From: Cyclobacteriaceae bacterium
Lineage (GTDB): Bacteria; Bacteroidota; Bacteroidia; Cytophagales; Cyclobacteriaceae
NCBI GenBank assembly: GCA_965228955.1
Contig: OZ245848.1
Coordinates: forward strand, 835,879-899,878
Direction of reading: 5' to 3'
DNA length: 64,000 bases
The position numbers were made by a program, and so were the translations under genes. This document shows positions 1,636-58,514 of this stretch, one piece after another (the first letter of the stretch is position 1; each line of letters opens with the position of its first letter). A model generated the notes under the pieces. The model was given only the letters and a program-made list of their open reading frames with translations. It did not search any database and had not been told where the DNA came from.

Positions 1636-1790
1636 ATTCCCTCTCCTTGAGGAGGGAAGGGAGTGCCCGAAGGGCGGGGGAGGTGATTGCCTGAGTTGGA
1701 ACATGGAAGCTCGAAGTTGGATAGAGATATTGATTAACAGACTGATAAAGAAGATCCATAAGGTCCCCCTTGGAGAAGGGGGTTAGGGGG
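1636..1790. repeat. Cluster of short GC-rich REP-like hairpins
   Basis: Three hairpins: 'ctctcc ttga ggaggg' (1641-1656), 'gccc gaa gggc' (1665-1675) and 'ccccctt ggag aaggggg' (1765-1782). They are GC islands in an otherwise AT-rich spacer. Confidence 0.5.
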
Positions 1791-10157: not shown

Positions 10158-10222
10158 TTTTGGGTTATTTGAATTAGCTATTAGCTGTTTGGCTATTTGG
10201 CTCTTAGCTTTTTCCTTGGTTG
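10158..10222 (-). repeat. A-rich word repeat (AGCCAAA/AGCTAAn on the sense strand) abutting the E1 dehydrogenase start codon
   Basis: The plus strand reads 'ttttgggttatttgaattagctattagctgtttggctatttggctcttagcttttt'. Confidence 0.55.
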
Positions 10223-10254: not shown

Positions 10255-10410
10255 ATTATTAAATCCCACTTGCGATCCGTCATTCCTGACGAAGCGTAGC
10301 GTAGATCAGGAATCCCGATAACTTCTGCAGTCATGAATTTCGTGAGTGCTTTCCTTTTCGGGATTCCGGATATTTCTTTCATTTCATTGCAGAAATTCCG
10401 GAATGACGTT
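10255..10410. repeat. Family B structured repeat, copy 1 (about 140-155 bp, nested palindromes)
   Basis: About 85-90% identical by eye to 16765-16915. Termini are 'cgtcattcc...ggaatgacg'. Internal pairs are 'attcctga/tcaggaat' and 'ggaatcccga/tcgggattcc'. Confidence 0.75.
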
Positions 10411-10431
10411 ACATATTCTAACTTCCAACTT

Positions 10432-11043
10432 CTAACTTCCATCTTCAGTCTTCCCCGCTATCTCATTCCATGTTTTATATAACACGTCCTGCTTTTGGCG
10501 GAATTTTGGTATTTCTCTCAAAGGCTCCACTTCTTTCAAAGTTTCATGCAATTCCTGAGGAAGCTTTTGGTAGAGAGCTGTTCCTTTTGTTTTCCAATCG
10601 ATCATGTCATCACTCACTTGTTTGATGACTTTCGCTGGATTACCTACTACTAGACTTCTTTCAGGGATTTGCTCGCCTGCTTTTACAAATGCCAATGCAC
10701 CAACAATGGACTCCTTACCAATGGTAACATCATCCATGATCACAGCATTCATTCCAATCATTGCGTTTTCACCGATGTGAGCTCCATGAATTATAGCACC
10801 ATGACCAATGTGAGCACTTTTCTCAAGTCTCACAGTCACACCTGGAAACATATGAATCGTGCAGTTCTCCTGAACGTTACATCCATCAGCAATTTCAATT
10901 CCTCCCCAGTCGCCACGAATGGCTGCACCAGGTCCTACATACACATCCTTACCAATGATAACATTACCCGTTACCGCTGCTAAGGGATGTACGTAAGCAC
11001 TTTCGTGTACTACTGGTATAAAGCCTTTGTATTCGTAGATCAT
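10432..11043 (-). CDS. paaY: PaaY-like hexapeptide-repeat (gamma-carbonic-anhydrase fold) protein
   Basis: Left-handed beta-helix hexapeptide repeats ('GNVIIGKDVYVGPGAAIRGDWG', 'HGAIIHGAHIGENAMIGMNAVIMD') in a paa cluster context. Confidence 0.75.
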   Translation of the reverse strand: MIYEYKGFIPVVHESAYVHPLAAVTGNVIIGKDVYVGPGAAIRGDWGGIEIADGCNVQENCTIHMFPGVTVRLEKSAHIGHGAIIHGAHIGENAMIGMNAVIMDDVTIGKESIVGALAFVKAGEQIPERSLVVGNPAKVIKQVSDDMIDWKTKGTALYQKLPQELHETLKEVEPLREIPKFRQKQDVLYKTWNEIAGKTEDGS

Positions 11044-11118
11044 TTTTTAGCTTTTTGGCTTTTGGCTATTCAGCTGGTGGCCACTTTTAAAATCAACTCA
11101 AAACTCTAAATTCCAAAC
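11044..11118 (-). repeat. Word-repeat spacer between Uma2 and paaY (AGCCAAAA words, then ACTCAAAA/ACTCTAAA words)
   Basis: 'ttttttagctttttggcttttggctattcagc' followed by 'atcaactcaaaactctaaattccaaactcaaaac'. Confidence 0.5.
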
Positions 11119-11727
11119 TCAAAACACTTCTTTCAGATCTATCTCTAAACCGGGAAGTGTATGAACTTGTACCTTATCCTGATTCACATAAGTCTGTGGC
11201 AAGTTGTACTTACCTTCAGCCAATGTGAATACTTCAACGATTTCTTCTTTTGGGTAAATCACCCAATATTCTTTTACTCCATTCTCCTCGTATATCTCAC
11301 GTTTTATGGTGAGGTCTTTCTTCGCGGTGGAAGGAGATAAAATTTCTACAATCAAATCAGGCGCTCCAACACACCCTTTTTCATCAAGCTTGTCTTGATT
11401 GCAGATTACCATAATGTCTGGTTGAACCACAGTATAGATTTTATCATCTGGATCACCCTTTTTGTTTGGTAGTCTTACATCAAAAGGAGCATAATATGCT
11501 TTACATGATTTTCCTTTCACATAATCATATATAGTACTTGATAGGGATATCGCAATTCCCTGATGCTTCCTGGTTGGAGCAGGAGACATATCGAATATCT
11601 TCCCTTTAATCAACTCTACCCTTTCATCAAAAGTCCACTTTAAGTAGTCCGCATAGCTATAAGGTACCGTCGGCTCTTCTGTCAACAATTCCTCCAAAGT
11701 TTTTTCTTCTTGTTTGTATTCGCTCAT
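11119..11727 (-). CDS. Uma2 (DUF820) family PD-(D/E)xK endonuclease-like protein
   Basis: Characteristic 'APDLIVEILSPSTAKKDLTIKREIYEENGVKEYWVIYP' core. Confidence 0.75.
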   Translation of the reverse strand: MSEYKQEEKTLEELLTEEPTVPYSYADYLKWTFDERVELIKGKIFDMSPAPTRKHQGIAISLSSTIYDYVKGKSCKAYYAPFDVRLPNKKGDPDDKIYTVVQPDIMVICNQDKLDEKGCVGAPDLIVEILSPSTAKKDLTIKREIYEENGVKEYWVIYPKEEIVEVFTLAEGKYNLPQTYVNQDKVQVHTLPGLEIDLKEVF

Positions 11728-11770: not shown

Positions 11771-11930
11771 GAAGTTGGAAGTCGGAAGACCGGAGACCGA
11801 AGTTTTGTTTTTCCTTCAGTTTCAATTTCCTGCTATCCATTTTCTTAATTTTTAAATTAATTGTTCAGCTTCTGACTCCTATATCAATTTCTATTTACTT
11901 CGGTCTTCCGGCTCCCGTCTTCGGTCTTAC
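11771..11930. repeat. Family A element, copy A1 (GA-word arm + conserved core + complementary CT-word arm)
   Basis: The arm 'gaagttggaagtcggaagaccggagaccgaagtttt' (11771-11806) faces 'acttcggtcttccggctcccgtcttcggtcttac' (11897-11930). The core contains 'cttcag...ctatccatt'. Confidence 0.8.
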
Positions 11931-12694
11931 TTATACTTCTCCAATTCCTTCTTCGTATACTCCGACAAAACAAGCTTACCACTCATTCCTGCTCTTTCAT
12001 CGAGTAATTGGTCCCAGTTTTCGCATCCTTCCCAAAGAATATCTTTGATCAGTTTTCTTGCTTCTGGGTTCGTGTTAACAAGCTTTTCTGCTAACTCAGT
12101 GATTGCAGTATCCATTTCTTCCGCTGAATCGCTTAAGTGGTAATAAAGCCCTTTTTCCTTTGCCCACTCAGCAGTTTGGAATTCACTTGCGTTGATTGTT
12201 AGTTGAGAAAATGCTGAAAGTCCAACTTTTCTTTGAACTGCAGGTCCAACTACAAATGGTCCAATTCCAACCTGTAATTCACTTAACTTGACAGAAGCGA
12301 ATTTTGTGGCAAAGCAATAATCTACTGCAGAAGCAACACCAACACCACCACCCACAGCTTTTCCTTGTACTCTTCCTATGATGATTTTTGGACATTTTCT
12401 GCAGGCATTGATCACATTAGCAAAACCTGAGAAGAATTTCTTTCCGGTTTCATAATCATCTATTGTGATCAATTCAGTGAAGCTTGCTCCGGCGCAGAAT
12501 GTTCTTTCTCCACCACTTTTCAAAATAATCACTTCAACCATTGGATCATTACCAGCTTCGGTAATGGTTTGAGCTAGTTTTGCTAGCACACCACTTGGTA
12601 GCGAATTGTGTGAAGGATGGAAAAAGGTGATTGTTCCAATTCCTCCTTTTCTTTCCAGGCTTACATAAGCCTCTTGTTCCTTAACTTCAGCCAT
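11927..12694 (-). CDS. Enoyl-CoA hydratase/isomerase (crotonase) family protein, PaaF-like candidate
   Basis: Crotonase fold motifs ('FCAGASF', 'GRVQGKAVGGGVGVASAVD'). It overlaps the paaZ stop by 8 nt. Confidence 0.8.
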   Translation of the reverse strand: MAEVKEQEAYVSLERKGGIGTITFFHPSHNSLPSGVLAKLAQTITEAGNDPMVEVIILKSGGERTFCAGASFTELITIDDYETGKKFFSGFANVINACRKCPKIIIGRVQGKAVGGGVGVASAVDYCFATKFASVKLSELQVGIGPFVVGPAVQRKVGLSAFSQLTINASEFQTAEWAKEKGLYYHLSDSAEEMDTAITELAEKLVNTNPEARKLIKDILWEGCENWDQLLDERAGMSGKLVLSEYTKKELEKYK

Positions 12695-15200
12695 TTATAT
12701 CTTCTTCTTTAATCAGGTTAAATGCGTCAAAATGATGATGGATGTGCTTTCTGTGCATCAAATCCCAGTGTTCTTTATCCAGAGGACCAAATACTGAATT
12801 GTTGTGAATCGCATCTGGGTTTTCTTTGTAGTACTGTTGGAATTCATCATATGCTACCAGGAATGCCTCTTTTGCTTCCTTCAAACTTCCAAATCTTAAA
12901 TCTTCAGTAGTATCCTTTTTTAGATCTGGATGAGGATATGTTTCTGGCATGTGATAGTAGTTCCAAAGTGAATCCTGGTACTTTTCAAGTTTCTCTTCTG
13001 GTGTTACAACATTAGTTTGATACTTACCAACAGCCATGTGCATTGACCATTCCAAATGCTCAACCATATGCTGAGGTCCCATCATTCCCCATTTATTTTT
13101 GGAATCATCAGTTAGTCTTCCTAGTAGTTTTTCAATGTTCTTTCTGTTGAATTCTACAAATGGAGATTTCTTTTGAACCAATGTCAGGATTGTTCCCATT
13201 GCTGCCAGTTCTTCCTCCTGATCGTAAACTTCGACGAACCATTTCACAACTCCTGAAGGATGTTCTTTTCCTCTGCTATCTCTTTCAACTTTTTCCTTAC
13301 ATGTTAATCTTACCTGAATGGTGTCATTGTGGTAGATTGGTTTCAGGAATCTGATTTCATCAAGTCCATAGTTTGCCGATACCGGGCCTTTGTTAGGGTA
13401 AACAAAAAGTCCAGCTGCAGCTGCTAATATGAAGTATCCATGTGCAGCTCTTTTTTCAAATATTGTTCCCTGAAGAGATGTAATATCTGTATGAGCGTAG
13501 AAATGATCCCAAGTGAGGTTTGCGAAATTGATGATGTCAGAATCCGTTACTGTTCTCTTATGCGTCAGTAGAGACATTCCTGGTTGGATGTCTTCAAAAT
13601 GATATGAGAAAGGATGATTTGGTGATTCTGTATAGTCAGCTCCTTGTTGGAATATTCCGGTAACTGCTGTGATGGTGCTTGGTGTTCCCTGGATAGCACA
13701 TCTTTGTAGATAGTGCTCAACACCTCGCATTCCACCCATTTCTTCACCGCCTCCAGCTCTACCCGGACCACCGTGAACAAGTGTAGGAAGAGGAGAACCG
13801 TGACCTGTACTAAGTTTTGCGTTTTCTCTATCTAATACTAAAATTCTACCATGATGACTTGCAGCACCAACTACAAAGTCTCTGGCGATTTTCTTATCAA
13901 AAGTGGAGATTGAACAGCATAATGAGCCTTTACCCATTTTAGCTAATTCAATAGCATCATGCATGTCTTTGTAAGGTACAATTGTACTTACAGGACCGAA
14001 TGCCTCTACTTCGTGAACTGCTTTATTCTTATGAGGATCTTTTTCCAATAATAGAATTGGGCTTAAGAATGCTCCCTTTTCAGAGTCAGCATCCATTACA
14101 TCAACCTTATCAAGATTTCCGTAAACGATCTCAGCAGTAGCTGCTAATTCTTTTACTCTGTCTCTAACTTCCTGTACCTGATCCATACTTGCCAAGGCAC
14201 CCATTCGGACTTCTTTACTTTCAGGATTTCCAATTACTGTTCTTTCTAAAGACTTGCCTAAAGCAATTTGAACATCTTCAATCAGGTTCTCAGGAACAAT
14301 AATTCTTCTGATAGCAGTACATTTCTGACCACATTTGACAGTCATTTCTTTCTTGACTTCCTTTATGAAAAGATCAAACTCAGGAGTTCCAGGAACTGCA
14401 TCTTCGCCGAGAACTGAACAGTTTAATGAGTCAGCTTCCATATTGAATGGAACAGCTTCATCAATGATTCTTGGGTTACTTTTAAGCATTCTACCAGTGG
14501 TGGCAGAACCGGTAAAGGTTACCACGTCTTGAGACTCAACTGTATCGAGAATGTTTCTAGCAGAACCGCAGATCAATTGAAGTGCTCCCTCTGGTAGAAT
14601 TCCTGATGCTATGATTTCTCTAACAACCGCTTCAGTAAGGTAGGAGGTAGCTGTTGCTGGTTTTACTACAGCAGGAACTCCAGCCATCCAGTTAACAGCA
14701 CATTTTTCAAGCATTCCCCAAACCGGGAAGTTAAATGCGTTTATATGGATTGCAACACCTTCTTTAGGAACCATGATATGATGCCCCATGAACTTTCCAC
14801 CTCTTGATAGGTCGATTGGAGCTCCATCTACATGGAAAGATTGATTTGGGAATAATTTTCTTAATGAAGCGTTGGCAAACAGATTACCAAATCCTCCTTC
14901 TATATCGATCCAGCTATCAACTTTAGTAGCACCTGTTTGATAACTGATTTTGTAGAAATGATCTTTCTTTCTTACCAGGTACAAAGCAAGCTTTTTAAGC
15001 ATATTACCTCTTTCCTGGAATGTCATTTTTCTCAATGCCGGACCACCTACGTTTCTACCGTAGTTTAGGATTTCACCAAAATCTAGTCCGGTAGTGGAGG
15101 CATGGTGTATCACCTCTCCATTAACAGCATTGTAAATAGGCTGGCCATCACCTGTGCCATTTACCCATTCTCCGCTTACGTAATTTCCTAATTTGTTCAT
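12687..15200 (-). CDS. paaZ: PaaZ: bifunctional aldehyde dehydrogenase / MaoC-hotdog oxepin-CoA hydrolase with an extra ~150-aa C-terminal DinB/DUF1569-like extension
   Basis: N-terminus 'MNKLGNYVSGEWVNGTG' and an ALDH fold. The hotdog segment is 'DIINFANLTWDHFYAHTD...GYFILAAAAG'. The C-terminal tail carries 'FGPLDKEHWDLMHRKHIHHHFDAF'. Confidence 0.88.
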   Translation of the reverse strand: MNKLGNYVSGEWVNGTGDGQPIYNAVNGEVIHHASTTGLDFGEILNYGRNVGGPALRKMTFQERGNMLKKLALYLVRKKDHFYKISYQTGATKVDSWIDIEGGFGNLFANASLRKLFPNQSFHVDGAPIDLSRGGKFMGHHIMVPKEGVAIHINAFNFPVWGMLEKCAVNWMAGVPAVVKPATATSYLTEAVVREIIASGILPEGALQLICGSARNILDTVESQDVVTFTGSATTGRMLKSNPRIIDEAVPFNMEADSLNCSVLGEDAVPGTPEFDLFIKEVKKEMTVKCGQKCTAIRRIIVPENLIEDVQIALGKSLERTVIGNPESKEVRMGALASMDQVQEVRDRVKELAATAEIVYGNLDKVDVMDADSEKGAFLSPILLLEKDPHKNKAVHEVEAFGPVSTIVPYKDMHDAIELAKMGKGSLCCSISTFDKKIARDFVVGAASHHGRILVLDRENAKLSTGHGSPLPTLVHGGPGRAGGGEEMGGMRGVEHYLQRCAIQGTPSTITAVTGIFQQGADYTESPNHPFSYHFEDIQPGMSLLTHKRTVTDSDIINFANLTWDHFYAHTDITSLQGTIFEKRAAHGYFILAAAAGLFVYPNKGPVSANYGLDEIRFLKPIYHNDTIQVRLTCKEKVERDSRGKEHPSGVVKWFVEVYDQEEELAAMGTILTLVQKKSPFVEFNRKNIEKLLGRLTDDSKNKWGMMGPQHMVEHLEWSMHMAVGKYQTNVVTPEEKLEKYQDSLWNYYHMPETYPHPDLKKDTTEDLRFGSLKEAKEAFLVAYDEFQQYYKENPDAIHNNSVFGPLDKEHWDLMHRKHIHHHFDAFNLIKEEDING

Positions 15201-15227
15201 TTTCAGGTCGTTTATTGCCCGTAGGGC

Positions 15228-15471
15228 AAGTTGGAAGTCGGAAGACCGAAGACGGAAGTGTTATTAGTGCTTCCAGGTTCGATCTTTCAATCCATTTATG
15301 TTTTGTAGACGGAAGTCGGAAGACCGGAGACCGAAGTTTCGATAATGCTTCGATATCCAATTCTGACTATCCATTTACTATTTATCTTTAATTTTCTAGT
15401 TACTCAAATACTATTAACTACAATCTAGCCTTCCATACTTCGGTCTCCCGTCTCTGGTCTTCCGACTTCTA
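15228..15471. repeat. Family A element, copy A2 (duplicated GA arm and core, single CT arm)
   Basis: GA arms at 15228-15260 and 15306-15340. The cores carry 'gcttc...tccattt'. The CT arm 'acttcggtctcccgtctctggtcttccgacttcta' lies at 15437-15471 and includes the thiolase stop codon. Confidence 0.8.
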
Positions 15472-16677
15472 CGCTTTCTCAATCACAGCTGCATAACCCT
15501 GACCAACACCCACACACATTGTTACTAATGCATATTTCTTATCGGTCAAGCTTAATTCAAGGGCAGCACTGTACATAATTCTTGCACCTGTCATTCCTAG
15601 CGGGTGGCCAATTGCTATTGCTCCACCGTTAGGATTTATTCTTGGATCATCATCTGATAATCCCCACTCTCTGATGCAAGCAAGACTTTGAGCAGCAAAT
15701 GCTTCGTTTAGCTCAATTACGTCCATGTCTTCCATTTTCAAGCCAGCTCTTTCGAGAGCTTTATTGGAAGCTCCAACAGGTCCTATTCCCATTATTCTTG
15801 GTTCAACTCCTACTACTGCTGAGCTTACAATTCTTGCTAATGGCTTAAGATCATATTTTGAAACCGCATCAGATGAAGCTACGATTGTTGCTGCTGCGCC
15901 ATCGTTAAGTCCACTGGAATTTCCTGCTGTTACAGTTCCACCTTCTTTTCTGAATGCTGCTCTTAGTTTTGAAAGTCCATCTTCAGTTGTATGAGGTTTA
16001 ATAAACTCATCATGATTGAAAATGATCGGGTCCGCTTTTCTTTGAGGAATTTGAACTGGAACAATCTCTTTAGCTAATCTCCCTTCATGGTCTGCATTTC
16101 CAGCTTTTTGCTGAGATCTCAATGCAAAATGATCTTGGTCTGCTCTGCTAATTTTGTATCGTTCAACAAGGTTTTCTGCAGTCTCGCCCATGCTTTCAGT
16201 GCCATAAAGCTCGTGCATTCTCTTATTCACAAATCTCCACCCAAAACTGGAATCAAACATCTGAGAATCCTGGCCAAATGGGCTTGAAGCTTTTGAGATC
16301 ACCCAAGGGCCTCTTGTCATATTTTCAACTCCTCCGGCGATGAATAAATCACCATCTCCAGCTTTGATAGCTCTGTTGGCCTGGATGATTGCTGAAAGTC
16401 CTGAAGAACATAATCTGTTTACTGTTTCTCCTGGAACAGAAAATGGAAGTCCAGCAAGTAGGGAAGACATTCGGGCAACATTTCTGTTATCTTCACCAGC
16501 CTGATTAGCACAGCCCATGATTACATCTTCATAAGCTTCCATTGGAATATTTTTATTCCTGCTTACTAATTCTTTGATTACCAATGCTCCTAAATCGTCA
16601 GTTCGCACAGCACCTAAAGTGCCTTTGAATTTTCCGATTGGAGTACGTATGCCGTCAATTATGAATGCGTCTTTCAT
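15469..16677 (-). CDS. paaJ: 3-oxoadipyl-CoA / acetyl-CoA C-acyltransferase (thiolase)
   Basis: Thiolase motifs 'NRLCSSGLSAI', 'GNSSGLNDGAAA', 'NGGAIAIGHPLG', 'CVGVGQG'. Confidence 0.9.
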   Translation of the reverse strand: MKDAFIIDGIRTPIGKFKGTLGAVRTDDLGALVIKELVSRNKNIPMEAYEDVIMGCANQAGEDNRNVARMSSLLAGLPFSVPGETVNRLCSSGLSAIIQANRAIKAGDGDLFIAGGVENMTRGPWVISKASSPFGQDSQMFDSSFGWRFVNKRMHELYGTESMGETAENLVERYKISRADQDHFALRSQQKAGNADHEGRLAKEIVPVQIPQRKADPIIFNHDEFIKPHTTEDGLSKLRAAFRKEGGTVTAGNSSGLNDGAAATIVASSDAVSKYDLKPLARIVSSAVVGVEPRIMGIGPVGASNKALERAGLKMEDMDVIELNEAFAAQSLACIREWGLSDDDPRINPNGGAIAIGHPLGMTGARIMYSAALELSLTDKKYALVTMCVGVGQGYAAVIEKA

Positions 16678-16686
16678 ATGTTTTCT

Positions 16687-16990
16687 TAGTTGGAAGTCGG
16701 AAGACCGGAGACCGAAGTTTTGTGTTGCTTCAGTAATCGGTTCTAACTGTCCATTGATTTTTTATTCTATTAAATTGCGATACGTCATTCCTGACGAAGC
16801 GAAGCGTAGATCAGGGATCCCAATAACTTTTGCAATCCTTGAAATCGTGAGTACTTCACTTATCGGGATTCCGGATATTTCTTCCATTTCATTACAGAAA
16901 TTCCGGAATGACGTCATCTATTATTATTTAAGTCATCTAATTTTTAACCTCCAACTTCTAACCTCCAACTTCTAACTTCCAGCTTCTATT
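16687..16990. repeat. Family A element, copy A3, carrying a nested family B element
   Basis: GA arm 'tagttggaagtcggaagaccggagaccgaagttttgtg' (16687-16724) and core 'gcttcag...ctgtccatt'. Family B sits at 16765-16915. The CT-word arm 'aacctccaacttctaacctccaacttctaacttccagcttct' lies at 16946-16987. Confidence 0.75.
16765..16915. repeat. Family B structured repeat, copy 2
   Basis: Aligns base for base with 10255-10410, apart from a short indel near the 5' edge and about 15-20 substitutions concentrated in the central loop. Confidence 0.75.
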
Positions 16991-16991
16991 C

Positions 16992-17402
16992 TCAAATTTC
17001 ACTCGATGTTCTATAAACAGTACCTCTAAAAAGCCCTACTACCTCACCGCTACTCTCATTGCTCACTTCTACATCGTAGGTTCCGCTTTTGTTTCCTTTT
17101 ACTAGTTCGTTTGCTTTAGCTATCAGGATATCTCCTTCTTTTGCTTGTTTTGAGTAGGTCATACTTCCATTCATTGAAACACTTAGTCTACCATATGAAT
17201 TTGAAGCAAATGCAAAGGCGCTATCTGCAAACGCAAATGATACTCCTCCATGAAGTATCCCAAAACCATTGAGCATCTCTTTTCTAACAGTCATTTTCAA
17301 AGTGCAGTTTCCTTCAGAGATAGAGATTAGTTCTACACCCATCCATTGGCTGTAGTAATCCTTGTCCATCATTCGGTCATACACTTCTTTTGGACTGCTC
17401 AT
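16992..17402 (-). CDS. paaI: PaaI-type hotdog-fold acyl-CoA thioesterase
   Basis: 136 aa with 'GILHGGVSFAFADSAFAFA'. It has a 4-nt overlap with the upstream dehydrogenase gene. Confidence 0.85.
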   Translation of the reverse strand: MSSPKEVYDRMMDKDYYSQWMGVELISISEGNCTLKMTVRKEMLNGFGILHGGVSFAFADSAFAFASNSYGRLSVSMNGSMTYSKQAKEGDILIAKANELVKGNKSGTYDVEVSNESSGEVVGLFRGTVYRTSSEI

Positions 17403-18586
17403 GAATTTACTGATTCTTCCTGATAAAAATTAGAATGCTCTGTTACCATATCTCTAAGTAATGGACTGCATCTGTATCGCTCTTCGTGATATCTATTGAA
17501 TAGATTATCCAAAAGAGAAACACATCTGTCAATTCCAATCTCATCTGCCCATTTTAAAAGACCCTTAGGATAATTAACTCCAGTTGTCATGGCAGTGTCG
17601 ATATCATCTCTGCTGGCAATTCCAAAATGCAATGCATCAGCAGCTTCATTGATTAACATAGCCACGATTCTGTCAACAATCATATGCCCATGCATCTCAT
17701 CAGAGTCTGGTTCTGGTTTTTGTGAACCTTCACTGTAATCGTAATAACCTTTGCCAGTTTTCCTTCCGAGAAGTCCGGCTTCCATCATTCTTTTCTGAGT
17801 AAACGATGGTCTATATCTTGGGTCACCGAAGAATGCATTGAATACCGTTTCCGTTACGGTGTAGTTTATATCGTTTCCAATGAAATCCATCAACTCAAAA
17901 GGTCCCATACGAAATCCTCCGATTTCTTTCATGGCCCAGTCGATTGTTGGCATATCGGCAATTCCCTCATCATAAATTCTAAGGGCTTCACCATAAAATG
18001 GTCTCGCCACTCGGTTTACAATGAACCCAGGAGTGTCTTTTGCAAGGACTGTCAACTTACCCCAGCTATCGATGATAGACTTGGCTTTTTGTGTTGTTCC
18101 TTCAGATGTTTGAATTCCTGGAATAATTTCAGCCAGTTTCATCAAAGGAACTGGATTGAAAAAATGGATACCTATAAATCGTTCTGGAGCACTCACAGCG
18201 GAAGCTAAAGATGCAATCGAGAGGGATGAAGTGTTTGAAGCAATAATGCATTCTTTACTTACATTTCTATCTAACTCCTCAAAAACAGTTCTTTTGATTT
18301 CTGGATTCTCAACAATTGCTTCGATAACAAGGCTGCAATCAGCCAGACCTTTAATTTCTGAAGCGTAAGTAATGTTATTGAGAATGTCAGATTGCTTTGA
18401 GCTATCTATTTTTCCTTTTTCTACTAATCTATTAAGTATTTTTTGGAGTTTGGATTTGCTATCTTCAATGGCTGCAGTATTGTTATCATAAACAACAACT
18501 TGCCAACCAGCAGTAGCAGCAATTTGGGCAATTCCTCGTCCCATTGTACCTGATCCAATTACACCAGCTATATTGTGATTGCTCAT
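17399..18586 (-). CDS. paaH: 3-hydroxyacyl-CoA (3-hydroxyadipyl-CoA) dehydrogenase
   Basis: Rossmann motif 'GVIGSGTMGRGIAQ' and 3HCDH N- and C-terminal domains. Confidence 0.85.
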   Translation of the reverse strand: MSNHNIAGVIGSGTMGRGIAQIAATAGWQVVVYDNNTAAIEDSKSKLQKILNRLVEKGKIDSSKQSDILNNITYASEIKGLADCSLVIEAIVENPEIKRTVFEELDRNVSKECIIASNTSSLSIASLASAVSAPERFIGIHFFNPVPLMKLAEIIPGIQTSEGTTQKAKSIIDSWGKLTVLAKDTPGFIVNRVARPFYGEALRIYDEGIADMPTIDWAMKEIGGFRMGPFELMDFIGNDINYTVTETVFNAFFGDPRYRPSFTQKRMMEAGLLGRKTGKGYYDYSEGSQKPEPDSDEMHGHMIVDRIVAMLINEAADALHFGIASRDDIDTAMTTGVNYPKGLLKWADEIGIDRCVSLLDNLFNRYHEERYRCSPLLRDMVTEHSNFYQEESVNS

Positions 18587-19383
18587 TACTTACCTTTAAA
18601 ATTCGGCTTCCTCTTTTCTATAAATGCTTTTACTCCTTCAGAGTAATCTTCAGTTTCACTGGCAGCAATTTGAAGTCTGTTTTCCACCTCAAGTTGTTGC
18701 TCCAGGTTGTTTACTAGCGAAGAATTGAAGGCTTCTTTGGTATACGCCAACCCTTGAGTTGGCATATTGGCCATTCGTAGTGCTATTTTATTTACATTCT
18801 CTTCGAATTCCGCATCGCCAAAGTATTTGTAAATCATTCCGAGTGACTCAGCTTCCTGAGCAGATACTTTGTCTCCCAACATCGCTAATGCAGATGCTTT
18901 TTGGAAACCTACTAGCCTCGGGAGAAAGAATGTTCCTGCACTATCGGGTATTAAACCGATTCCGCTAAAAGCTTGGATGAAAGATGCATTCTCATGTGCA
19001 ATAACTATATCACAAGCAAGAGCAATGTTAGCTCCAGCACCAGCCGCAACTCCATTCACCTTAGCAATTACCGGTTTCATTAGCGCCCTTATCTTTCGAA
19101 TAATGGGCGCATAATGTTCCTCTAATATAGATTTGAATCCAGGCATTGCTTCCGGAGAGGTAACCTCTACCAGATCCTGACCGGCACAAAAGGCCTTGCC
19201 TTCACCGGTTATTAGAACGCATCTGATCTGCTCATCAGCTGCGCATTCATCTAATGATTTTTGGAATTGTAGTGCCAGTTCTCTGGTGACACTGTTGAAT
19301 GCTTTTGGCCTATTGAGTTTAATGGTGGCAACTCCGGCTTCTTTTGAAAAAATAATTGGCTCCATCGAGTCGTTTATATGCAT
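18586..19383 (-). CDS. paaG: Enoyl-CoA hydratase/isomerase, PaaG-like (1,2-epoxyphenylacetyl-CoA isomerase candidate)
   Basis: 'ATIKLNRPKAFNSV...RCVLITGEGKAFCAGQDL' closely follows the PaaG N-terminal pattern. Confidence 0.8.
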   Translation of the reverse strand: MHINDSMEPIIFSKEAGVATIKLNRPKAFNSVTRELALQFQKSLDECAADEQIRCVLITGEGKAFCAGQDLVEVTSPEAMPGFKSILEEHYAPIIRKIRALMKPVIAKVNGVAAGAGANIALACDIVIAHENASFIQAFSGIGLIPDSAGTFFLPRLVGFQKASALAMLGDKVSAQEAESLGMIYKYFGDAEFEENVNKIALRMANMPTQGLAYTKEAFNSSLVNNLEQQLEVENRLQIAASETEDYSEGVKAFIEKRKPNFKGK

Positions 19384-19859
19384 TTGAAGTAATCAAAAGG
19401 TTCCAGGCAATCCTGGCATTTAAAAAGTGCTTTGCAAGGTGTTGATCCAAACTGGCTTACCATTTCGGTATTGGTTGAACCGCATTGAGGACATTTGATA
19501 ATCCTTTCACCATCCAGCAATGCTTTTTTGTCCATGGTTTCATTCATAGGAGGAGCAATGCCGTACTTTTCTAACTTTTGCTTACCATTTTCTGAAATCC
19601 ATTCGGTTGTCCATGGTGGAGATAATACAGTGTCTACTTTCGCTTCTATATTATGAGATTTGAAAGCGTTTACTATATCTTCTTCGATCACATCCATTGC
19701 CGGGCAACCAGAGTAAGTAGGGGTGATGGTGATCAACACATGATCAGCTTTTTGTTGGGCGTCTTTCACAATGCCCATATCCAAAATAGACAATACAGGA
19801 ATTTCCGGATCAGAAACTGATTCTAGAATTTCCTGTATTTGGTTGTCTATCTTGATCAT
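19374..19859 (-). CDS. paaD: 1,2-phenylacetyl-CoA epoxidase subunit PaaD
   Basis: A DUF59-like N-terminus plus the C-terminal Cys cluster 'KCPQCGSTNTEMVSQFGSTPCKALFKCQDCLEPFDYFKCI'. Confidence 0.9.
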   Translation of the reverse strand: MIKIDNQIQEILESVSDPEIPVLSILDMGIVKDAQQKADHVLITITPTYSGCPAMDVIEEDIVNAFKSHNIEAKVDTVLSPPWTTEWISENGKQKLEKYGIAPPMNETMDKKALLDGERIIKCPQCGSTNTEMVSQFGSTPCKALFKCQDCLEPFDYFKCI

Positions 19860-19884
19860 TGTTTGGGTTGTTTTTATTTGATAA

Positions 19885-20637
19885 TCACCAGGTCATATTT
19901 GGGTATGTCCTTTGCATGTATTGCAATTCTGTTAATATGAATCCCATGTGCTCGGAGTGAATTCCATTTTTCCCTCCTTGCTGATAAGGATCATATTCTG
20001 GTATTGTTAATGTTGCTTCTGCGACAACTGCCTCAATATCTTTTTTGTATTGCTCGTGAATAGCGTTTAGATCAGCTCCAATTCCCTCTTCTTTCGCCCA
20101 TTTCTCAATTTCTGATTCTTCGAAAAGCTCACCAACATATGCCCATAAGTAATCCAGTGCTTCCTGCGTTTTTTGATGACTTTCTTCAGTCCCATCACCA
20201 AGTCTTTTTACCCACTCAGATGAAAATCTATGATGGTAACTGACTTCTTTAATCGACTTTGCGGCAATGGCAGCTATCGTTTTGTCTTTGCTATTCTTTA
20301 ATTGCTCAAGCAGTGGTAGGTGGTAAGCATCAAAAAGGAACTGTCTTACTATGATGTAAGCAAAGTCTGTATTTGGCTGCTCAACCAAAAGAACATTTTT
20401 GTATTCTCTCTCTGTTCTCAAGAAAGCAACAGTATCTTCATTAAAGTTTTCACCTTTTACTTTTGCAGCATATTGGCAATAACTTCTCGTCTGACCGTAT
20501 AAATCCAATGAAATATTGGTCAAAGCGATATCGGTTTCCAGGCTTGGCCCGTGACCGCATAGCTCCGAAAGTCTGTGACCCAGAATCATGCTGTTATCGC
20601 TTAATTGAAGTATATATTGATATAAATTATCGTTCAT
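19885..20637 (-). CDS. paaC: 1,2-phenylacetyl-CoA epoxidase subunit PaaC
   Basis: A ferritin-like structural subunit whose size (250 aa) and position between paaB and paaD fit PaaC. Confidence 0.88.
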   Translation of the reverse strand: MNDNLYQYILQLSDNSMILGHRLSELCGHGPSLETDIALTNISLDLYGQTRSYCQYAAKVKGENFNEDTVAFLRTEREYKNVLLVEQPNTDFAYIIVRQFLFDAYHLPLLEQLKNSKDKTIAAIAAKSIKEVSYHHRFSSEWVKRLGDGTEESHQKTQEALDYLWAYVGELFEESEIEKWAKEEGIGADLNAIHEQYKKDIEAVVAEATLTIPEYDPYQQGGKNGIHSEHMGFILTELQYMQRTYPNMTW

Positions 20638-20696
20638 TTTTTTGGCTTTTTAGCTACTAGCTTTTTGGCTTTTTAGCTTTTGGCTTACTTGAAATT
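20638..20696 (-). repeat. Word-repeat spacer (AGCCAAAA/AGCTAAAA on the sense strand) filling the whole paaB-paaC junction
   Basis: The plus strand reads 'tttttttggctttttagctactagctttttggctttttagcttttggcttac'. Confidence 0.6.
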
Positions 20697-20981
20697 CTAT
20701 ATGTGCTTTACCTCGTCGGGTAAGTCGTAGAATGTTGGGTGTCTGTATACTTTGTCAGCTGCTGGTTCGAATATTTCACCGGCTTGCTCTGGATTAGATG
20801 CAGTAATGTTTTCTGATTCTACAACCCAGATGCTTACGCCTTCCATTCTTCTGGTGTATACATCTCTTGCGTTTTCTATCGCCATGGTAGCATCAGCAGC
20901 ATGTAAACTTCCAACATGTCTGTGCTCTAAACCATTCTTACTTCTAATGAAGACTTCAAAAAGTGGCCAATTCTTGCTCAT
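20697..20981 (-). CDS. paaB: 1,2-phenylacetyl-CoA epoxidase subunit PaaB
   Basis: 94 aa with 'WPLFEVFIRSKNGLEHRHVGSLHAAD...YTRR'. It lies 3 nt downstream of paaA. Confidence 0.9.
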   Translation of the reverse strand: MSKNWPLFEVFIRSKNGLEHRHVGSLHAADATMAIENARDVYTRRMEGVSIWVVESENITASNPEQAGEIFEPAADKVYRHPTFYDLPDEVKHI

Positions 20982-20984
20982 ATC

Positions 20985-21941
20985 TTATACTGCTTCTTTA
21001 AGTGTTTGCTTAGCTTTTTTCTCTGCGTGTGCTACAGCGGCATCTCTAACCCACTTACCTTTATCATAAGCAGTCTTTCTCGCGTGTAGTCTTTCTTTGT
21101 TACAAGGTCCGTGACCTTTTACAACTCTCCAGAATTCATCCCAATTGATCTCTCCAAAGTCATAGTGACCTCTCTCTTCATTCCATTTAAGATCTTTATC
21201 CGGAATGGTTAAACCAAGAAATTCAGCCTGAGGAACAGTCTGGTCAACGAATTGCTGACGAAGTTCATCGTTGGTCTTTCTCTTAATTTTCCATTTCATT
21301 GATTGCTCAGTGTGAGTAGATGCTTCGTCAGTTGGACCAAACATCATTAATGAAGGCCACCACCATCTGTTTAGTGCGTCCTGAGCCATTTCTTTTTGTA
21401 CTTCTGTGCCTTTAGATAGAGTAAGAAGGATTTCGTAACCTTGTCTTTGGTGGAAACTTTCTTCTTTACAAATTCTCACCATAGCCCTTGCATACGGACC
21501 GTAAGAAGTTCTTGTAAGCATCACCTGGTTCATGATTGCTGCACCATCAACTAACCATCCAATTGCACCGATATCGGCCCAGGTTACTGCCGGGTAGTTG
21601 AAAATACTTGAATATTTCGCTTTCCCTGAATGAAGTTGCTCGAAAAGTTCATCTCTAGAGATACCTAGAGTTTCAGTAGCACTGTATAAATACAATCCGT
21701 GTCCACCTTCATCCTGCACTTTTGCTAATAATGCTACTTTTCTTCTGAGACTAGGAGCTCTTGTAATCCAGTTGCCTTCCGGAAGCATACCAACAATTTC
21801 TGAATGAGCATGCTGTGAAATCTGTCGGATGTGAGTTTTTCTATATTTCTCAGGCATCCAATCTTTAGGTTCAATGTTCTCTCCACGATCTATTCGTGCC
21901 TGGAACTGCTCTTCTAAATCAATGATTTCTTTTTCTGACAT
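20985..21941 (-). CDS. paaA: 1,2-phenylacetyl-CoA epoxidase catalytic subunit PaaA
   Basis: Diiron ferritin-like motifs 'QDEGGHG' and '[10 protein letters not shown]'. Confidence 0.93.
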
Positions 21942-21948
21942 ATTTTTT

Positions 21949-22083
21949 GAAGTTAGAAGCTGGAAGACCGAAGACCGAAGTTTTGTGACTTCTGACTTTA
22001 GTACCTCTGCACTCCATTTAAGTATTCAATTTCTTTTATGAGACTTGGACTTCTGTCTTCCGACTTCCGTCTGCGGTCTTCTT
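21949..22083. repeat. Family A element, copy A4
   Basis: GA arm 'gaagttagaagctggaagaccgaagaccgaagttttgtg' (21949-21987) and core 'acttctgac...cactccattt'. The CT arm 'acttctgtcttccgacttccgtctgcggtcttc' (22049-22082) abuts the paaE stop. Confidence 0.8.
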
Positions 22084-23152
22084 AAACATCAAAATCCACA
22101 ACCACTTTATCCGTTAGTGGAATAGCTTGGCAGGTGAGAACATAACCATCTTCTACCTCTTCTTGTTCGAGTGCGTAGTTGTTGATCATTTCTACTTTAC
22201 CTTCAAGTACTTTTGCCTTACAAGTACAGCAAACACCACCTTTGCAAGCGAATGGTAAGTCTGCAGCTTGTCCAAGCGCACCATCTAATATGTTTGTTTT
22301 TCCAATTTCAAGATCAAAGCGGAATTTCTTGCCACCTTCCTGAACTGTAACATCACATATTTCACCACTGTGAGCTTTTACTTCTTCACTTGGCACATAT
22401 TTTTGACCAGTTGTGTTGAATAACTCAAAGTGAATTTTTTGTTCGTCAAAACCTTTATCCTTCAAGTAATCTCTGATTAGGAATATCATATCTTCAGGAC
22501 CACAGATAAAGGTGTCGTCTGTATTTTCTGTGCTTATTAAAGAACTGTAAATAATATCCAGTTTTTCGCTATCAATTCTTCCGTCAAACAAAGCGACATC
22601 TCTCACCTCCTTTGTCAGGAAGTGATAGATTTTGAATCGATTGAGATATTGATTCTTTAAAGCTTCAATTTCTTCTTTAAGAATTACGGAACCAGCATTC
22701 TTGTTGATATAGAACAAAGTAAATGTACTGTTTGGTTCTGACATCAAATGAGTTTTGATGATTGATAGGATAGGAGTGATACCACTTCCAGCTGCGAACG
22801 CAACATAGTTTTTGTTTGCATTCGGTTCTATTGGTACGTTGAAGTTACCGTGTGGAGGCATCACCTCTAAAGTATCTCCCGCTTTTAGGTTATTATTCGC
22901 AAAAGTTGAGAATACTCCATTAGGTATTTGCTTAATTCCAACTCTCAATTCACCATCCAGAGGACTGGAACAAATTGAATAATTCCTTCTTACTTCCTCA
23001 TTATTGATTGTGGCTTTCAGGGTAAGATGTTGGCCTTGAACGAACTTAAAAGCCTCTTTTTCACCATTATTCAAATCAAATGAAATGATAGAACAATCCG
23101 GTGTGGTTTTGAATATTTCCTTGATTTTCAGGTCGTAAAACTTATTCTGCAT
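22082..23152 (-). CDS. paaE: 1,2-phenylacetyl-CoA epoxidase reductase subunit PaaE (FNR-like + plant-type 2Fe-2S)
   Basis: FAD motif 'RNYSICS', NAD motif 'AAGSGITP', and C-terminal ferredoxin 'CKGGVCCTCKAKV'. Confidence 0.9.
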   Translation of the reverse strand: MQNKFYDLKIKEIFKTTPDCSIISFDLNNGEKEAFKFVQGQHLTLKATINNEEVRRNYSICSSPLDGELRVGIKQIPNGVFSTFANNNLKAGDTLEVMPPHGNFNVPIEPNANKNYVAFAAGSGITPILSIIKTHLMSEPNSTFTLFYINKNAGSVILKEEIEALKNQYLNRFKIYHFLTKEVRDVALFDGRIDSEKLDIIYSSLISTENTDDTFICGPEDMIFLIRDYLKDKGFDEQKIHFELFNTTGQKYVPSEEVKAHSGEICDVTVQEGGKKFRFDLEIGKTNILDGALGQAADLPFACKGGVCCTCKAKVLEGKVEMINNYALEQEEVEDGYVLTCQAIPLTDKVVVDFDV

Positions 23153-23165
23153 TTCTGGGAGCTAA

Positions 23166-23215
23166 CAAACGTTTGCATAAAACTAACAATTGTTAGTTAA
23201 ACTGACAAATGTCAG
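23166..23215. promoter_or_regulatory. Three palindromes in the paaE promoter region (candidate TetR operator sites)
   Basis: 'caaacgtttg' (23166-23175), an 18-bp perfect palindrome 'aactaacaattgttagtt' (23181-23198), and 'ctgaca aa tgtcag' (23202-23215). All lie 14-63 nt upstream of the paaE ATG. Confidence 0.65.
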
Positions 23216-23906: not shown

Positions 23907-23928
23907 ATATATAGTTAAATAATTCTTA

Positions 23929-23946
23929 AACTAACAGTTGTTAGTT
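23929..23946. promoter_or_regulatory. Second copy of the 18-bp operator, upstream of the TetR gene (autoregulation site)
   Basis: 'aactaacagttgttagtt' differs from 23181-23198 at one central base. It lies 23 nt upstream of the annotated start. Confidence 0.65.
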
Positions 23947-24056
23947 ATTTGTAATTCTTTGAAAATCTCAACAGGTCATAACTTATATCGTCGATTTGTC
24001 CTTTGAGGTTCTAGATTTTACTGAATTGACTAAATATGAGGACGAGTGGTTGCATG

Positions 24057-30854: not shown

Positions 30855-30900
30855 AGAACAAAGAACAAAGAACAAAGAACAAAGAACAAAGAACAAAGAA
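30855..30900 (+). repeat. Perfect 7-bp tandem repeat (AGAACAA) x 6.5
   Basis: 'agaacaaagaacaaagaacaaagaacaaagaacaaagaacaaagaa' begins 7 nt after the acetyltransferase stop codon. It generates the spurious minus-strand ORFs with 'SLFFVLCSLFFVL'. Confidence 0.9.
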
Positions 30901-30990
30901 ATTTCACAACGGCAGGTCTTTTGTCTTTGATCTTTTATCTAACATCTAAAAATAAACACCCAGCTTGAAACTGGGCTAACGTTTAAGACA

Positions 30991-31957: not shown

Positions 31958-32815
31958 ATGCCTAAAATCTCCGAAACTGACCTAATATTAAATCCAGACG
32001 GAAGTGTTTATCACTTAAACCTAAAACCAGAACACATATCAGAGAACATCATTACTGTTGGAGACCCATCCAGGGTCCACAGAATTAGCAGCTTCTTTGA
32101 TAAAGTGGAGTTTGAAATGAACCGAAGAGAGTTCATTACTCATACTGGTACTTATAAAGGTAAAAGAATCACAGTGATCAGCACCGGGATGGGAACCGAT
32201 AATGTTGAAGTATTACTAACAGAGTTGGATGCCCTGGTTAATGTGGATTTAAAAACTAGGGAAGTTAAAGAGGAGAAAACTTCATTAAACATCATTAGAG
32301 TAGGAACTTCTGGTAGTATTCAGGAGGATATTAAGGTTGGTAGTCACCTTGCGTCAGAATATGCTATTGGTCTTGATACATTAATGATGTTTTACCATTT
32401 CGAGAATGGTAAGTTGGAAGATGAATTAGCCAGTAAGATTCAGGAAGAAATTGGATTTCCTTTTAAGCCATATGTTGTTCAGGGATCCAGTGAACTGTTG
32501 AAGAAATTTGGAGAGGGAATGGTTGTTGGAAATACAATAACTGCACCAGGTTTCTATGCACCACAAGGAAGGACCGTTAGAAACACAATCAAGTTTCCAG
32601 ATTTAATTGATAAGCTAATTTTATTCCATCATAAAGGATTTTGGCTAACAAACTTTGAAATGGAGACGGCTGGTTATTATGCGCTATCAAAAATGATGGG
32701 GCACGAAATGATTAGCTTGAATGCAATTCTTGCCAATAGAACAAGACACACTTTCTCCAAGAACCCAAACAGAGTTATTGATGCTCTGATTAAAAAGGTA
32801 TTGGATAGGATTTAG
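31958..32815 (+). CDS. Nucleoside phosphorylase (PNP_UDP_1 family)
   Basis: 'ITVGDPSRV', 'STGMGTDNVEV', 'RVGTSGS' and 'FEMETAG' motifs. Confidence 0.8.
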   Translation: MPKISETDLILNPDGSVYHLNLKPEHISENIITVGDPSRVHRISSFFDKVEFEMNRREFITHTGTYKGKRITVISTGMGTDNVEVLLTELDALVNVDLKTREVKEEKTSLNIIRVGTSGSIQEDIKVGSHLASEYAIGLDTLMMFYHFENGKLEDELASKIQEEIGFPFKPYVVQGSSELLKKFGEGMVVGNTITAPGFYAPQGRTVRNTIKFPDLIDKLILFHHKGFWLTNFEMETAGYYALSKMMGHEMISLNAILANRTRHTFSKNPNRVIDALIKKVLDRI

Positions 32816-32873
32816 TCTGGAGTTTTGAGTTTGGAGTTTTGAATTTCTTGAATTTTTAGTTTAGGATTGAGTT
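32816..32873 (+). repeat. T/G word repeat (GAGTTTTG/GAGTTTGG), complement of the ACTCAAAA word family
   Basis: 'tctggagttttgagtttggagttttgaatttcttgaatttttagtttaggattgagtt' lies between convergent genes. Confidence 0.5.
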
Positions 32874-43727: not shown

Positions 43728-43799
43728 AAATGTAACGATGTTAAGTAAGAATTGTTTGATTGATTTTGAGAATTTGTTGGGTTTGGGAGTTTCGGGTTT

Positions 43800-43829
43800 A
43801 ATCAGAGTCCTTTTCAAGAGACTCTGATT
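43800..43829 (+). repeat. REP hairpin copy 1
   Basis: 'aatcagagtc cttttcaaga gactctgatt', a 10-bp perfect stem followed by ggg. Confidence 0.8.
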
Positions 43830-43873
43830 GGGGTAGTTGCCCCGCCTATCAATCCGGTTAAACCACGATTCTC

Positions 43874-43903
43874 GATCAGAGTCTCTCGAAGAGGACTCTG
43901 ATC
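43874..43903 (-). repeat. REP hairpin copy 2 (inverted orientation; forms a REPIN-like doublet with copy 1)
   Basis: 'gatcagagtc tctcgaagag gactctgatc'. Its loop is the exact reverse complement of the copy 3 loop. Confidence 0.8.
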
Positions 43904-43932
43904 ACAAACGTAAAATCAAATGGGATTTGATA

Positions 43933-48724: not shown

Positions 48725-48725
48725 T

Positions 48726-48820
48726 AGTTCATTGTTCTTAGTTCATTGTTTATAGTGCTTAATCAACTAGAGAAACAAAACTGTGAACTAAGAACTAAAA
48801 ACAACTAGGAACTAAGAACC
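48726..48820. repeat. Word-repeat inverted pair (GTTCTTAGTTCA / TGAACTAAGAAC)
   Basis: A 12-bp perfect stem (48734-48745 with 48784-48795) is embedded in arms built from GAACTAA/GAACAAT words. Confidence 0.65.
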
Positions 48821-58372: not shown

Positions 58373-58397
58373 AACTCAAAATCCAAAACTCAAAATT
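58373..58397 (+). repeat. ACTCAAAA/ATCCAAAA word repeat
   Basis: 'aactcaaaatccaaaactcaaaatt' belongs to the same word family as 11086-11118. Confidence 0.4.
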
Positions 58398-58514
58398 CAT
58401 TAATAGTACTAAGCAACTGACTATTTGAACTTTTCTGATATGACTGGAGGATTGTTGGATTAACATGGCAAAAATCTACTGCAGTTTTGATATCTTGGCT
58501 CAAATTTTTTCAGT

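Follow-up and report, generated by a model that had tools for sequence, protein, structure and literature searches.

Gene-less heptamer-array stems in the spacers of a phenylacetate gene cluster and their possible kinship with PF05635 cassettes of Bacteroidota

The paa cluster and its junction elements

The window, a 64,000-nt stretch of DNA from a Cyclobacteriaceae bacterium (contig OZ245848.1), carries a paa cluster for phenylacetate degradation on the minus strand at 10.4-23.9 kb, as annotated by NCBIfam and Pfam for the open reading frames (ORFs) of this region. The gene order on the minus strand is TetR, paaE, A, B, C, D, G, H, I, J, Z, enoyl-CoA hydratase (ECH), Uma2 and paaY. One family of repeat elements occupies four of the junctions: paaE/paaA, paaI/paaJ, paaJ/paaZ and ECH/Uma2. 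These stem elements account for the unusually long spacers within the otherwise compact cluster. Genes and elements are located as follows.

23928-23947 and 23180-23199, palindrome TAACTAACAATTGTTAGTT (= TAACTAACAAnTGTTAGTT), upstream of the TetR gene and upstream of paaE
23906-23313, minus strand, TetR gene
23152-22082, minus strand, paaE, stop codon TAA at 22082-22084
21949-22084, minus strand, element D at the paaE/paaA junction, whole element
22044-22081, minus strand, element D, 5' GA arm directly after the TAA stop at 22082-22084
21982-22017 and 21949-21981, minus strand, element D, core and CU arm
start at 21941, minus strand, paaA
17402-16992, minus strand, paaI, stop at 16992
16687-16994, minus strand, element C at the paaI/paaJ junction, loop split by a nested foreign element
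16937-16990, minus strand, element C, 5' arm of GAAGTTR/GGAGGTTA heptamers
16719-16754 and 16687-16718, minus strand, element C, core and CU arm
16677-15469, minus strand, paaJ, start at 16677, stop codon TAG at 15469
15228-15471, minus strand, element B at the paaJ/paaZ junction, whole element
15437-15469, minus strand, element B, 5' GA arm beginning within the TAG stop
15338-15374 and 15305-15337, minus strand, element B copy a, core and CU arm
15260-15295 and 15228-15259, minus strand, element B tandem copy b, core and CU arm
15200-12687, minus strand, paaZ, start at 15200
12694-11927, minus strand, ECH gene, stop codon TAA at 11927-11929
11771-11929, minus strand, element A at the ECH/Uma2 junction, whole element
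11897-11929, minus strand, element A, 5' GA-heptamer arm overlapping the TAA stop at 11927-11929
11841-11896, 11804-11840 and 11771-11803, minus strand, element A, loop, core and 3' CU arm
11727-11119, minus strand, Uma2-family gene, start at 11727
11043-10432, minus strand, paaY

Read on the mRNA strand, the elements share one plan. A purine-word arm at the stop codon is followed by an AT-rich loop, a core of ~37 nt and a complementary CU-word arm. Both arms are built of tandem GAAGWCS-type heptamers. The purine-word arm begins inside or immediately past the stop codon (TAAGACCGAAGACGG..., TAGAAGTCGGAAGACC..., TAAGAAGACCGCAGACGG...). The CU arm, ACTTCGGTCTyCGGTCTTCCGACTTCCAACTTC, ends 7-44 nt before the following ATG. 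A sequence-only reading of this DNA had placed an arm at the upstream stops 11927, 15469, 16992 and 22082 and let the element run from stop to start, and the coordinates confirm both.

The same reading had claimed one composite element at all four junctions. This is borne out by the CU arm, of which a 27-mer occurs four times in the window, always within the paa cluster, and never in shuffled sequences; a degenerate 26-mer matches six arms in the window against none expected. It is also borne out by the core, with the pattern ATGGAyaG (ATGGAnnG) ... GAAG ... AAA, then ACTTCGGTCT, which is found in all five right halves. Core and CU arm can be aligned across these five. The single-copy layout suggested before is right for the set of four junctions and too simple for two of them: core and CU arm are duplicated in tandem in the paaJ/paaZ spacer, and the paaI/paaJ loop holds a nested element of ~140 nt. 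A small conserved ORF starting from the ATG of the core was ruled out by an in-frame stop after three codons in copy C.

An inverted-repeat search defined paired arms in element A (11778-11803 / 11897-11922), element B (15312-15336 / 15445-15469) and element D (21963-21981 / 22063-22081); the arms of element C pair using G-U pairs. Folds were computed on the mRNA strand, with z scores against shuffled sequences. The spacers fold with -44.6 kcal/mol (ECH/Uma2, z -4.8), -82.8 kcal/mol (paaJ/paaZ, z -5.9), -82.6 kcal/mol (paaI/paaJ, z -3.7) and -36.2 kcal/mol (paaE/paaA, z -2.8). The last is the weakest and marginal, as 2 of 200 shuffles fold equally well. Thus, the arms pair under energy scoring, and every copy can form the long imperfect hairpin proposed before. 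Rfam covariance models gave nothing relevant for the window elements, either at the gathering threshold or at E<=1.

Not every junction belongs to the family. The spacer of paaB/paaC holds AGCCAAA/AGCTAAA repeats and that of Uma2/paaY holds GAGTTTK repeats. Neither is the junction element, although both junctions are counted in the split of the cluster into the segments paaE, paaAB, paaCDGHI, paaJ, paaZ-ECH, Uma2 and paaY that had been proposed. A relaxed periodic scan of the window found 12 GA-word arrays, all intergenic. The GA-word element is concentrated in the paa cluster (10 arrays) and not specific to it, because two arrays follow an AraC-like gene. About 9 kb beyond the window edges, read in 93-95% identical relatives, contained no paired element.

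The palindrome is present at two sites only, one upstream of paaE and one upstream of the TetR gene. It is likely the operator of the TetR-family regulator of the cluster and marks the regulated promoter region of the operon. A canonical hairpin with a T-run follows the TetR gene.

Turnover of the spacers in close relatives

The locus L118 (JANSWY010000053.1) is ~94% identical to the window. Three junctions have kept their element, namely paaE/paaA, paaJ/paaZ and ECH/Uma2; in the ECH/Uma2 element, the GA arm is present in one more copy (36 nt) than in the window. At paaI/paaJ, a PF05635 gene (23S_rRNA_IVP) is located in place of the gene-less element of the window. This cassette has 36-nt inverted arms made of a different word and reaches from the stop of paaI to the start of paaJ.

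Two more distant loci, L120 and L121, have a PaaI that is 81-82% identical and the gene order of the window without Uma2. Their spacers are 31 and 103 nt (paaE/paaA), 50 and 39 nt (paaI/paaJ) and 66 and 52 nt (paaJ/paaZ), respectively. Short spacers of 31-66 nt are therefore found at three of the four junctions in at least one of the two loci and at two of the four in both. The spacers between ECH and the next gene are 100 nt in L120 and 135 nt in L121, and both hold heptamer repeats of other words. The comparison with relatives suggested by the sequence-only reading yielded short spacers at three junctions in one or both loci and different repeats at the fourth. A degenerate CU arm is retained at paaE/paaA of L121, its 3' end matching the window copy. 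Short, replaced and other-repeat spacers in the relatives indicate that the spacers turn over by whole-segment replacement.

For elements B and D, identity to the counterparts in L118 is 94-96%, against 75% at the 4-fold sites of the flanking genes. Purifying selection specific to the elements was considered and dropped, since every alignable intergenic stretch shows the same excess identity.

Two observations accompany this comparison. When the window is compared with L118, L202 and L203, identity is 91-95% for alignable intergenic DNA and 81-87% for third codon positions. Along the single cluster, 4-fold sites differ widely, from 50% identity in paaA up to 92% in paaI. This unevenness suggests mosaic recombination or an unusual constraint on the spacers. 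The Uma2 endonuclease gene, which is missing from the otherwise collinear L120 and L121, is bounded by element A upstream and by GAGTTTK heptamers downstream and itself looks like an inserted cassette.

The word family in Bacteroidota

The 26-nt word pattern matched GTDB species-representative genomes in at least 117 8-kb blocks, almost all of them from Bacteroidota. Bacteroidales, Flavobacteriales, Cytophagales, Saprospiraceae and Sphingobacteriales are among the matches listed. The pattern had no match in 2.9 million viral contigs, so carriage by phages was not found.

Arrays were defined as three or more GAAGWCS-type heptamers, and pairs as GA and CT arrays within 400 nt. In the matched blocks, 152 of 194 arrays (78%) are intergenic, against 16.6% of intergenic bases. 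The intergenic bias and the presence elsewhere that the sequence-only reading had asked about are thus evident in blocks of other genomes. In the paired arrays, GA precedes CT in 29 cases and follows it in none. The GA..CT order reads identically on either strand; it is therefore a real structural polarity. Most classified GA..CT pairs (18/24) are located between co-directional genes, often a few nucleotides from both. A side observation in L049 (1-400) concerns four tandem units of ~99 nt, each with CT words at its end.

Link to PF05635 genes

Some of these hairpins are loaded with a gene. In six loci (L085, L098, L028, L056, L030 and, partially, L037), GA and CT arms flank an ORF of 114-117 amino acids. 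The ORFs of L085, L098, L028 and L056 belong to PF05635 according to a Pfam scan (E 1e-28 to 1e-30). Those of L030 and L037 were recognised solely via a profile built here from five ORFs, the four just named and that of L118, and not by Pfam. The other PF05635 ORFs were missed by a jackhmmer search with the L118 protein as its single query but were reached with the five-ORF profile. PF05635 is S23p, the 23S rRNA intervening-sequence protein, an Avd-like four-helix bundle. Among solved structures, the pentameric four-helix-bundle proteins 2GSC and 2RLD are matched by the five-ORF profile as well. In the fold of the L085 cassette, the arms form a stem of ~28 bp (z -7.0). That the same stems enclose PF05635 genes had escaped the sequence-only reading.

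A word-independent sample was drawn by protein similarity. It comprised 80 PF05635 loci from metagenomes, 67 of them with enough flanking sequence. For 43 of the 67 genes, the flanking inverted repeat outscores every mismatched-pair control. The arms have period 7 as the strongest period in 32 of 38 cases, and the upstream arm has more G than C in 39 of 41. Only four cassettes use the words of the window. The gene is co-oriented with both neighbours in 21 of 27 cases. Arms start a median of 7 nt past the upstream gene and finish a median of 15 nt before the next. This stop-to-start geometry is the same as that of the window elements.

Two arrangements were noted beside these results. A GA/CT-armed PF05635 cassette is located upstream of a leuS-like gene (start MEYNF.EIE.KWQ) in L056, L030 and L085, which are three metagenome-assembled genomes of Bacteroidota; this position suggests an old or recurrent insertion site. 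L113 (1700-4250) contains two PF05635 genes and a 412-amino-acid gene, separated by long GA..CT arrays.

Within the open-access literature, no paper was found that describes operon spacers with a PF05635 gene enclosed in a heptamer-array stem, and a literal match of the heptamer words returned nothing relevant. The pattern of PF05635 cassettes within operons inside heptamer stems appears undescribed.

Other repeats in and around the window

Further repeats of the window are located as follows.

16775-16914, minus strand, nested ~140-nt inverted-repeat element (ACGTCATTCCGGA ... TCAGGAATGACGT ATCGCAA) in the loop of element C, of a different family
10412-10434, minus strand, unpaired GA-heptamer array GAAGATG GAAGTTA GAAGTTG GAAGTTA, beginning in the paaY stop, without CU arm
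10270-10409, second copy of the nested element, following the unpaired GA array after the paaY stop
1520-1582 and 1692-1719, plus strand, unpaired GA-word heptamer arrays after the stop of the AraC-like gene, outside the paa cluster

The ~140-nt element has terminal inverted repeats of ~13 bp and a third copy in L118 at 16564-16700. It is thus present in three different spacers of two ~94% identical genomes, once nested inside a GA/CT loop. It behaves like a mobile miniature inverted-repeat transposable element (MITE), in a family separate from the GA/CT elements. Between the two GA arrays after the AraC-like gene, a segment of ~157 nt with a GC-rich hairpin-like stretch (1526-1703) is missing in the 93% identical L202.

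Arrays of AGCCAAA/AGCTAAA at 20639-20686, 11044-11075 and 10165-10205 are located immediately 5' of the starts of paaC, paaY and an E1 dehydrogenase, reminiscent of the start-proximal heptamer repeats of Beggiatoaceae and Bacteroidetes. Heptamer arrays of other words follow stop codons at 30855-30940, 32814-32846, 48719-48819, 58373-58399 and 11095-11125; examples are an ATAGTTC/GAACTAA hairpin and a perfect AGAACAA array of 6.6 copies with TCTTTTG-type words behind it. Spacers with heptamer arrays are a general feature of the source genome. The longest inverted repeat of the window, at 43790-43913 between two minus-strand genes, has 39-nt arms of ATCAGAGTC words that are 82% complementary. 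It is unrelated to the GA/CT family.

Discussion

Comparison with known systems

The 23S rRNA intervening sequences (IVSs) of Coxiella, Leptospira and Salmonella, with their S23p/PF05635 ORF, share several features with the elements described here. The Coxiella IVS is a 428-nt element with a 28-bp terminal stem and an S23p ORF. It has two or three tandem GACAGAT heptamers, their number varying among strains, and RNase III cleavage was mapped at the first heptamer (PMC4990558). As in these IVSs, the terminal inverted repeats of the window elements form a long stem, and the heptamers of the stem, which in the IVS are purine-rich and part of its 5' side, are tandem and variable in number. The PF05635 ORF in the IVS loop corresponds to that in the loaded copies of the GA/CT family. 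The host RNA of an IVS stays functional around the insertion, to which the situation in the paa operon is likened. There are also differences. The IVS is located in helix 25/45 of the rRNA, whereas the window elements occupy intercistronic mRNA spacers between protein-coding genes; the IVS carries an ORF and the window copies do not; and the word is GACAGAT in Coxiella and GAAGWCS here. The IVS stem is cut by RNase III (PMC4990558); for the stems of the window elements, such cutting is a prediction.

Other repeats resemble the elements in part. The repetitive extragenic palindromic (REP) sequences and bacterial interspersed mosaic elements (BIMEs) had served as the analogy in the sequence-only reading. 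They are intergenic, co-transcribed hairpin repeats between operon genes, as the window elements are located between operon genes and form hairpins, and they can shape mRNA stability. REPs are imperfect palindromes of ~35 nt with a fixed sequence, occur in hundreds of copies and are mobilised by REP-associated tyrosine transposases (RAYTs). In contrast, the arms described here are tandem heptamers of variable length around loops of 70-250 nt. No RAYT was seen among the annotated ORFs of the paa region, in an annotation that was not a screen of the window ORFs aimed at RAYT. The analogy was therefore abandoned. Correia repeat enclosed elements (CREEs) of Neisseria are short, gene-adjacent and co-transcribed inverted-repeat elements, and RNase III cleaves their termini where these pair. 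They and similar MITEs are like the window elements in being short inverted-repeat insertions beside genes. The terminal repeats of Correia elements are fixed, and their target duplication is TA; neither feature was found for the window elements. Direct repeats of 7 nt in spacers near start or stop codons are known as TAACTGA repeats, cyanobacterial short tandemly repeated repetitive (STRR) sequences and long simple sequence repeats, and intergenic heptamer direct repeats occur in Bacteroidetes, Cyanobacteria and Beggiatoaceae (PMC4679880). These, too, are tandem 7-nt words in spacers, but they were described with almost no inverted pairs and no PF05635 link, whereas the window arrays are inverted, stem-forming pairs.

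Interpretation of the elements

Shared words, polarity and stop-to-start geometry link the empty elements and the PF05635 cassettes. A PF05635 cassette occupies the paaI/paaJ junction of the close relative L118, and the elements turn over by presence and absence between relatives. The hallmark of the class is that its two arms are inverted arrays of 7-nt words, with the 5' side G/purine-rich. We give about even chances to the reading that the four paa elements are gene-less members of this heptamer-array stem class, the loaded form of which carries a PF05635 gene in the loop. The observation made in the sequence-only reading is confirmed, and its interpretation is partly supported.

Several points weigh against this kinship. 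The window loops are without trace of a PF05635 gene or remnant (best E 0.2, profile), and the loops of other empty GA..CT hairpins have no decayed PF05635 signal. The GA..CT loops are bimodal, either empty with 10-252 nt or loaded with 374-393 nt, with no decayed intermediates; a derivation of the empty stems from loaded cassettes is therefore unsupported. Insertion of PF05635 genes into pre-existing hairpins fits equally well, or the empty and the loaded stem may be two alternative states. The L118 cassette at the matching paaI/paaJ junction is built from different words. The non-repetitive core is confined to the lineage of the window. With 94-96% identity to L118, the elements do not exceed the other alignable spacers in conservation, which leaves a constraint specific to the elements undemonstrated. 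Finally, RNase III cutting and co-transcription are inferred.

Generic hairpins could also arise in situ by heptamer slippage and be kept as REP-like barriers against 3'-exonucleases or as stability elements, with PF05635 cassettes merely landing there. The many other-word heptamer arrays in spacers of the window, the differing arm copy number among close relatives and the empty loops without decayed ORFs are in agreement with this, as are the heptamer repeats documented in spacers of Bacteroidetes and Cyanobacteria (PMC4679880). Slippage alone leaves unexplained the strict GA..CT order (29:0), the identical words across orders of the phylum, the non-repetitive core common to five copies and the exact stop-to-start geometry common with loaded cassettes. 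We regard it as unlikely, though of some weight. A classical MITE, in which a transposase from another locus of the genome would act on the arms as its terminal inverted repeats, is improbable, and the term describes the elements only loosely. The MITE-like insertions considered by the sequence-only reading agree with the inverted termini, with the insertion/deletion polymorphism relative to L120 and L121 and with five local copies that have a common internal sequence. The arms, however, have no constant length, register or word and consist of internal repeats, and loops elsewhere are unrelated. No target-site duplication was definable from filled and empty sites, the empty sites of L120 and L121 being too diverged, and no associated transposase was seen in either the window or the loci, where PF05635 is the only recurrent cargo.

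An RNA or operator specific to the paa pathway, in which core and arm bind a pathway regulator or metabolite to tune expression, would account for the location of 10 of the 12 GA-word arrays of the window in the paa cluster and for the conservation of the core in five copies. It is very improbable. L120 and L121 have a like gene order without core and element, and their spacers are just 31-66 nt at paaI/paaJ, paaJ/paaZ and, in L120, paaE/paaA. GA arrays also follow the unrelated AraC-like gene, identical words occur phylum-wide in unrelated contexts, and Rfam provided no match. Intrinsic terminators or attenuators between operon segments, a further option since the long stems are located between genes, are hardly credible. 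A U-tract is absent after every stem, none of the stems was called terminator-like, the loops are 70-250 nt long, and the genome uses a canonical hairpin with T-run after the TetR gene. Transcription attenuation, as suggested by the sequence-only reading, is unlikely because no U-tract follows the stem.

Proposed mechanism

Taken as gene-less members of the heptamer-array stem class, the elements are probably IVS-like, co-transcribed with the operon and substrates of RNase III. Transcription of the elements with the paa operon would start from the TetR-controlled promoter upstream of paaE. Each element would fold into an imperfect duplex of 25-35 bp, joining the upstream stop to the downstream start. 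An insertion would be tolerable because the duplex juxtaposes stop and start. By analogy with the heptamer stem of the Coxiella IVS, the duplex may be cut by RNase III, and the polycistronic mRNA would be cleaved at paaE|A, paaI|J, paaJ|Z and ECH|Uma2. Core and CU arm, as a local family, may have spread inside the cluster via duplication or recombination.

Biological implications

Where 23S rRNA intervening sequences and their S23p/Avd-like proteins come from, and what they do, has been an open question for ~30 years. A wider reading, which we hold tentatively and rate somewhat below even, is that the rRNA IVSs are the visible tip of a large undescribed group of operon intervening sequences. 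These would comprise PF05635 genes and empty shells in heptamer stems, within polycistronic mRNAs of Bacteroidota and other phyla, with stop-to-start stems cut by RNase III and gene-less copies acting as mRNA processing sites. If true, a large natural sample of loaded and empty elements, polymorphic among close relatives, would be available for studying the movement of the elements and the role of the protein. In Bacteroidota, a phylum without Shine-Dalgarno-based signals, RNase III may then divide operon mRNAs at predictable sites, which would matter for expression models and annotation.

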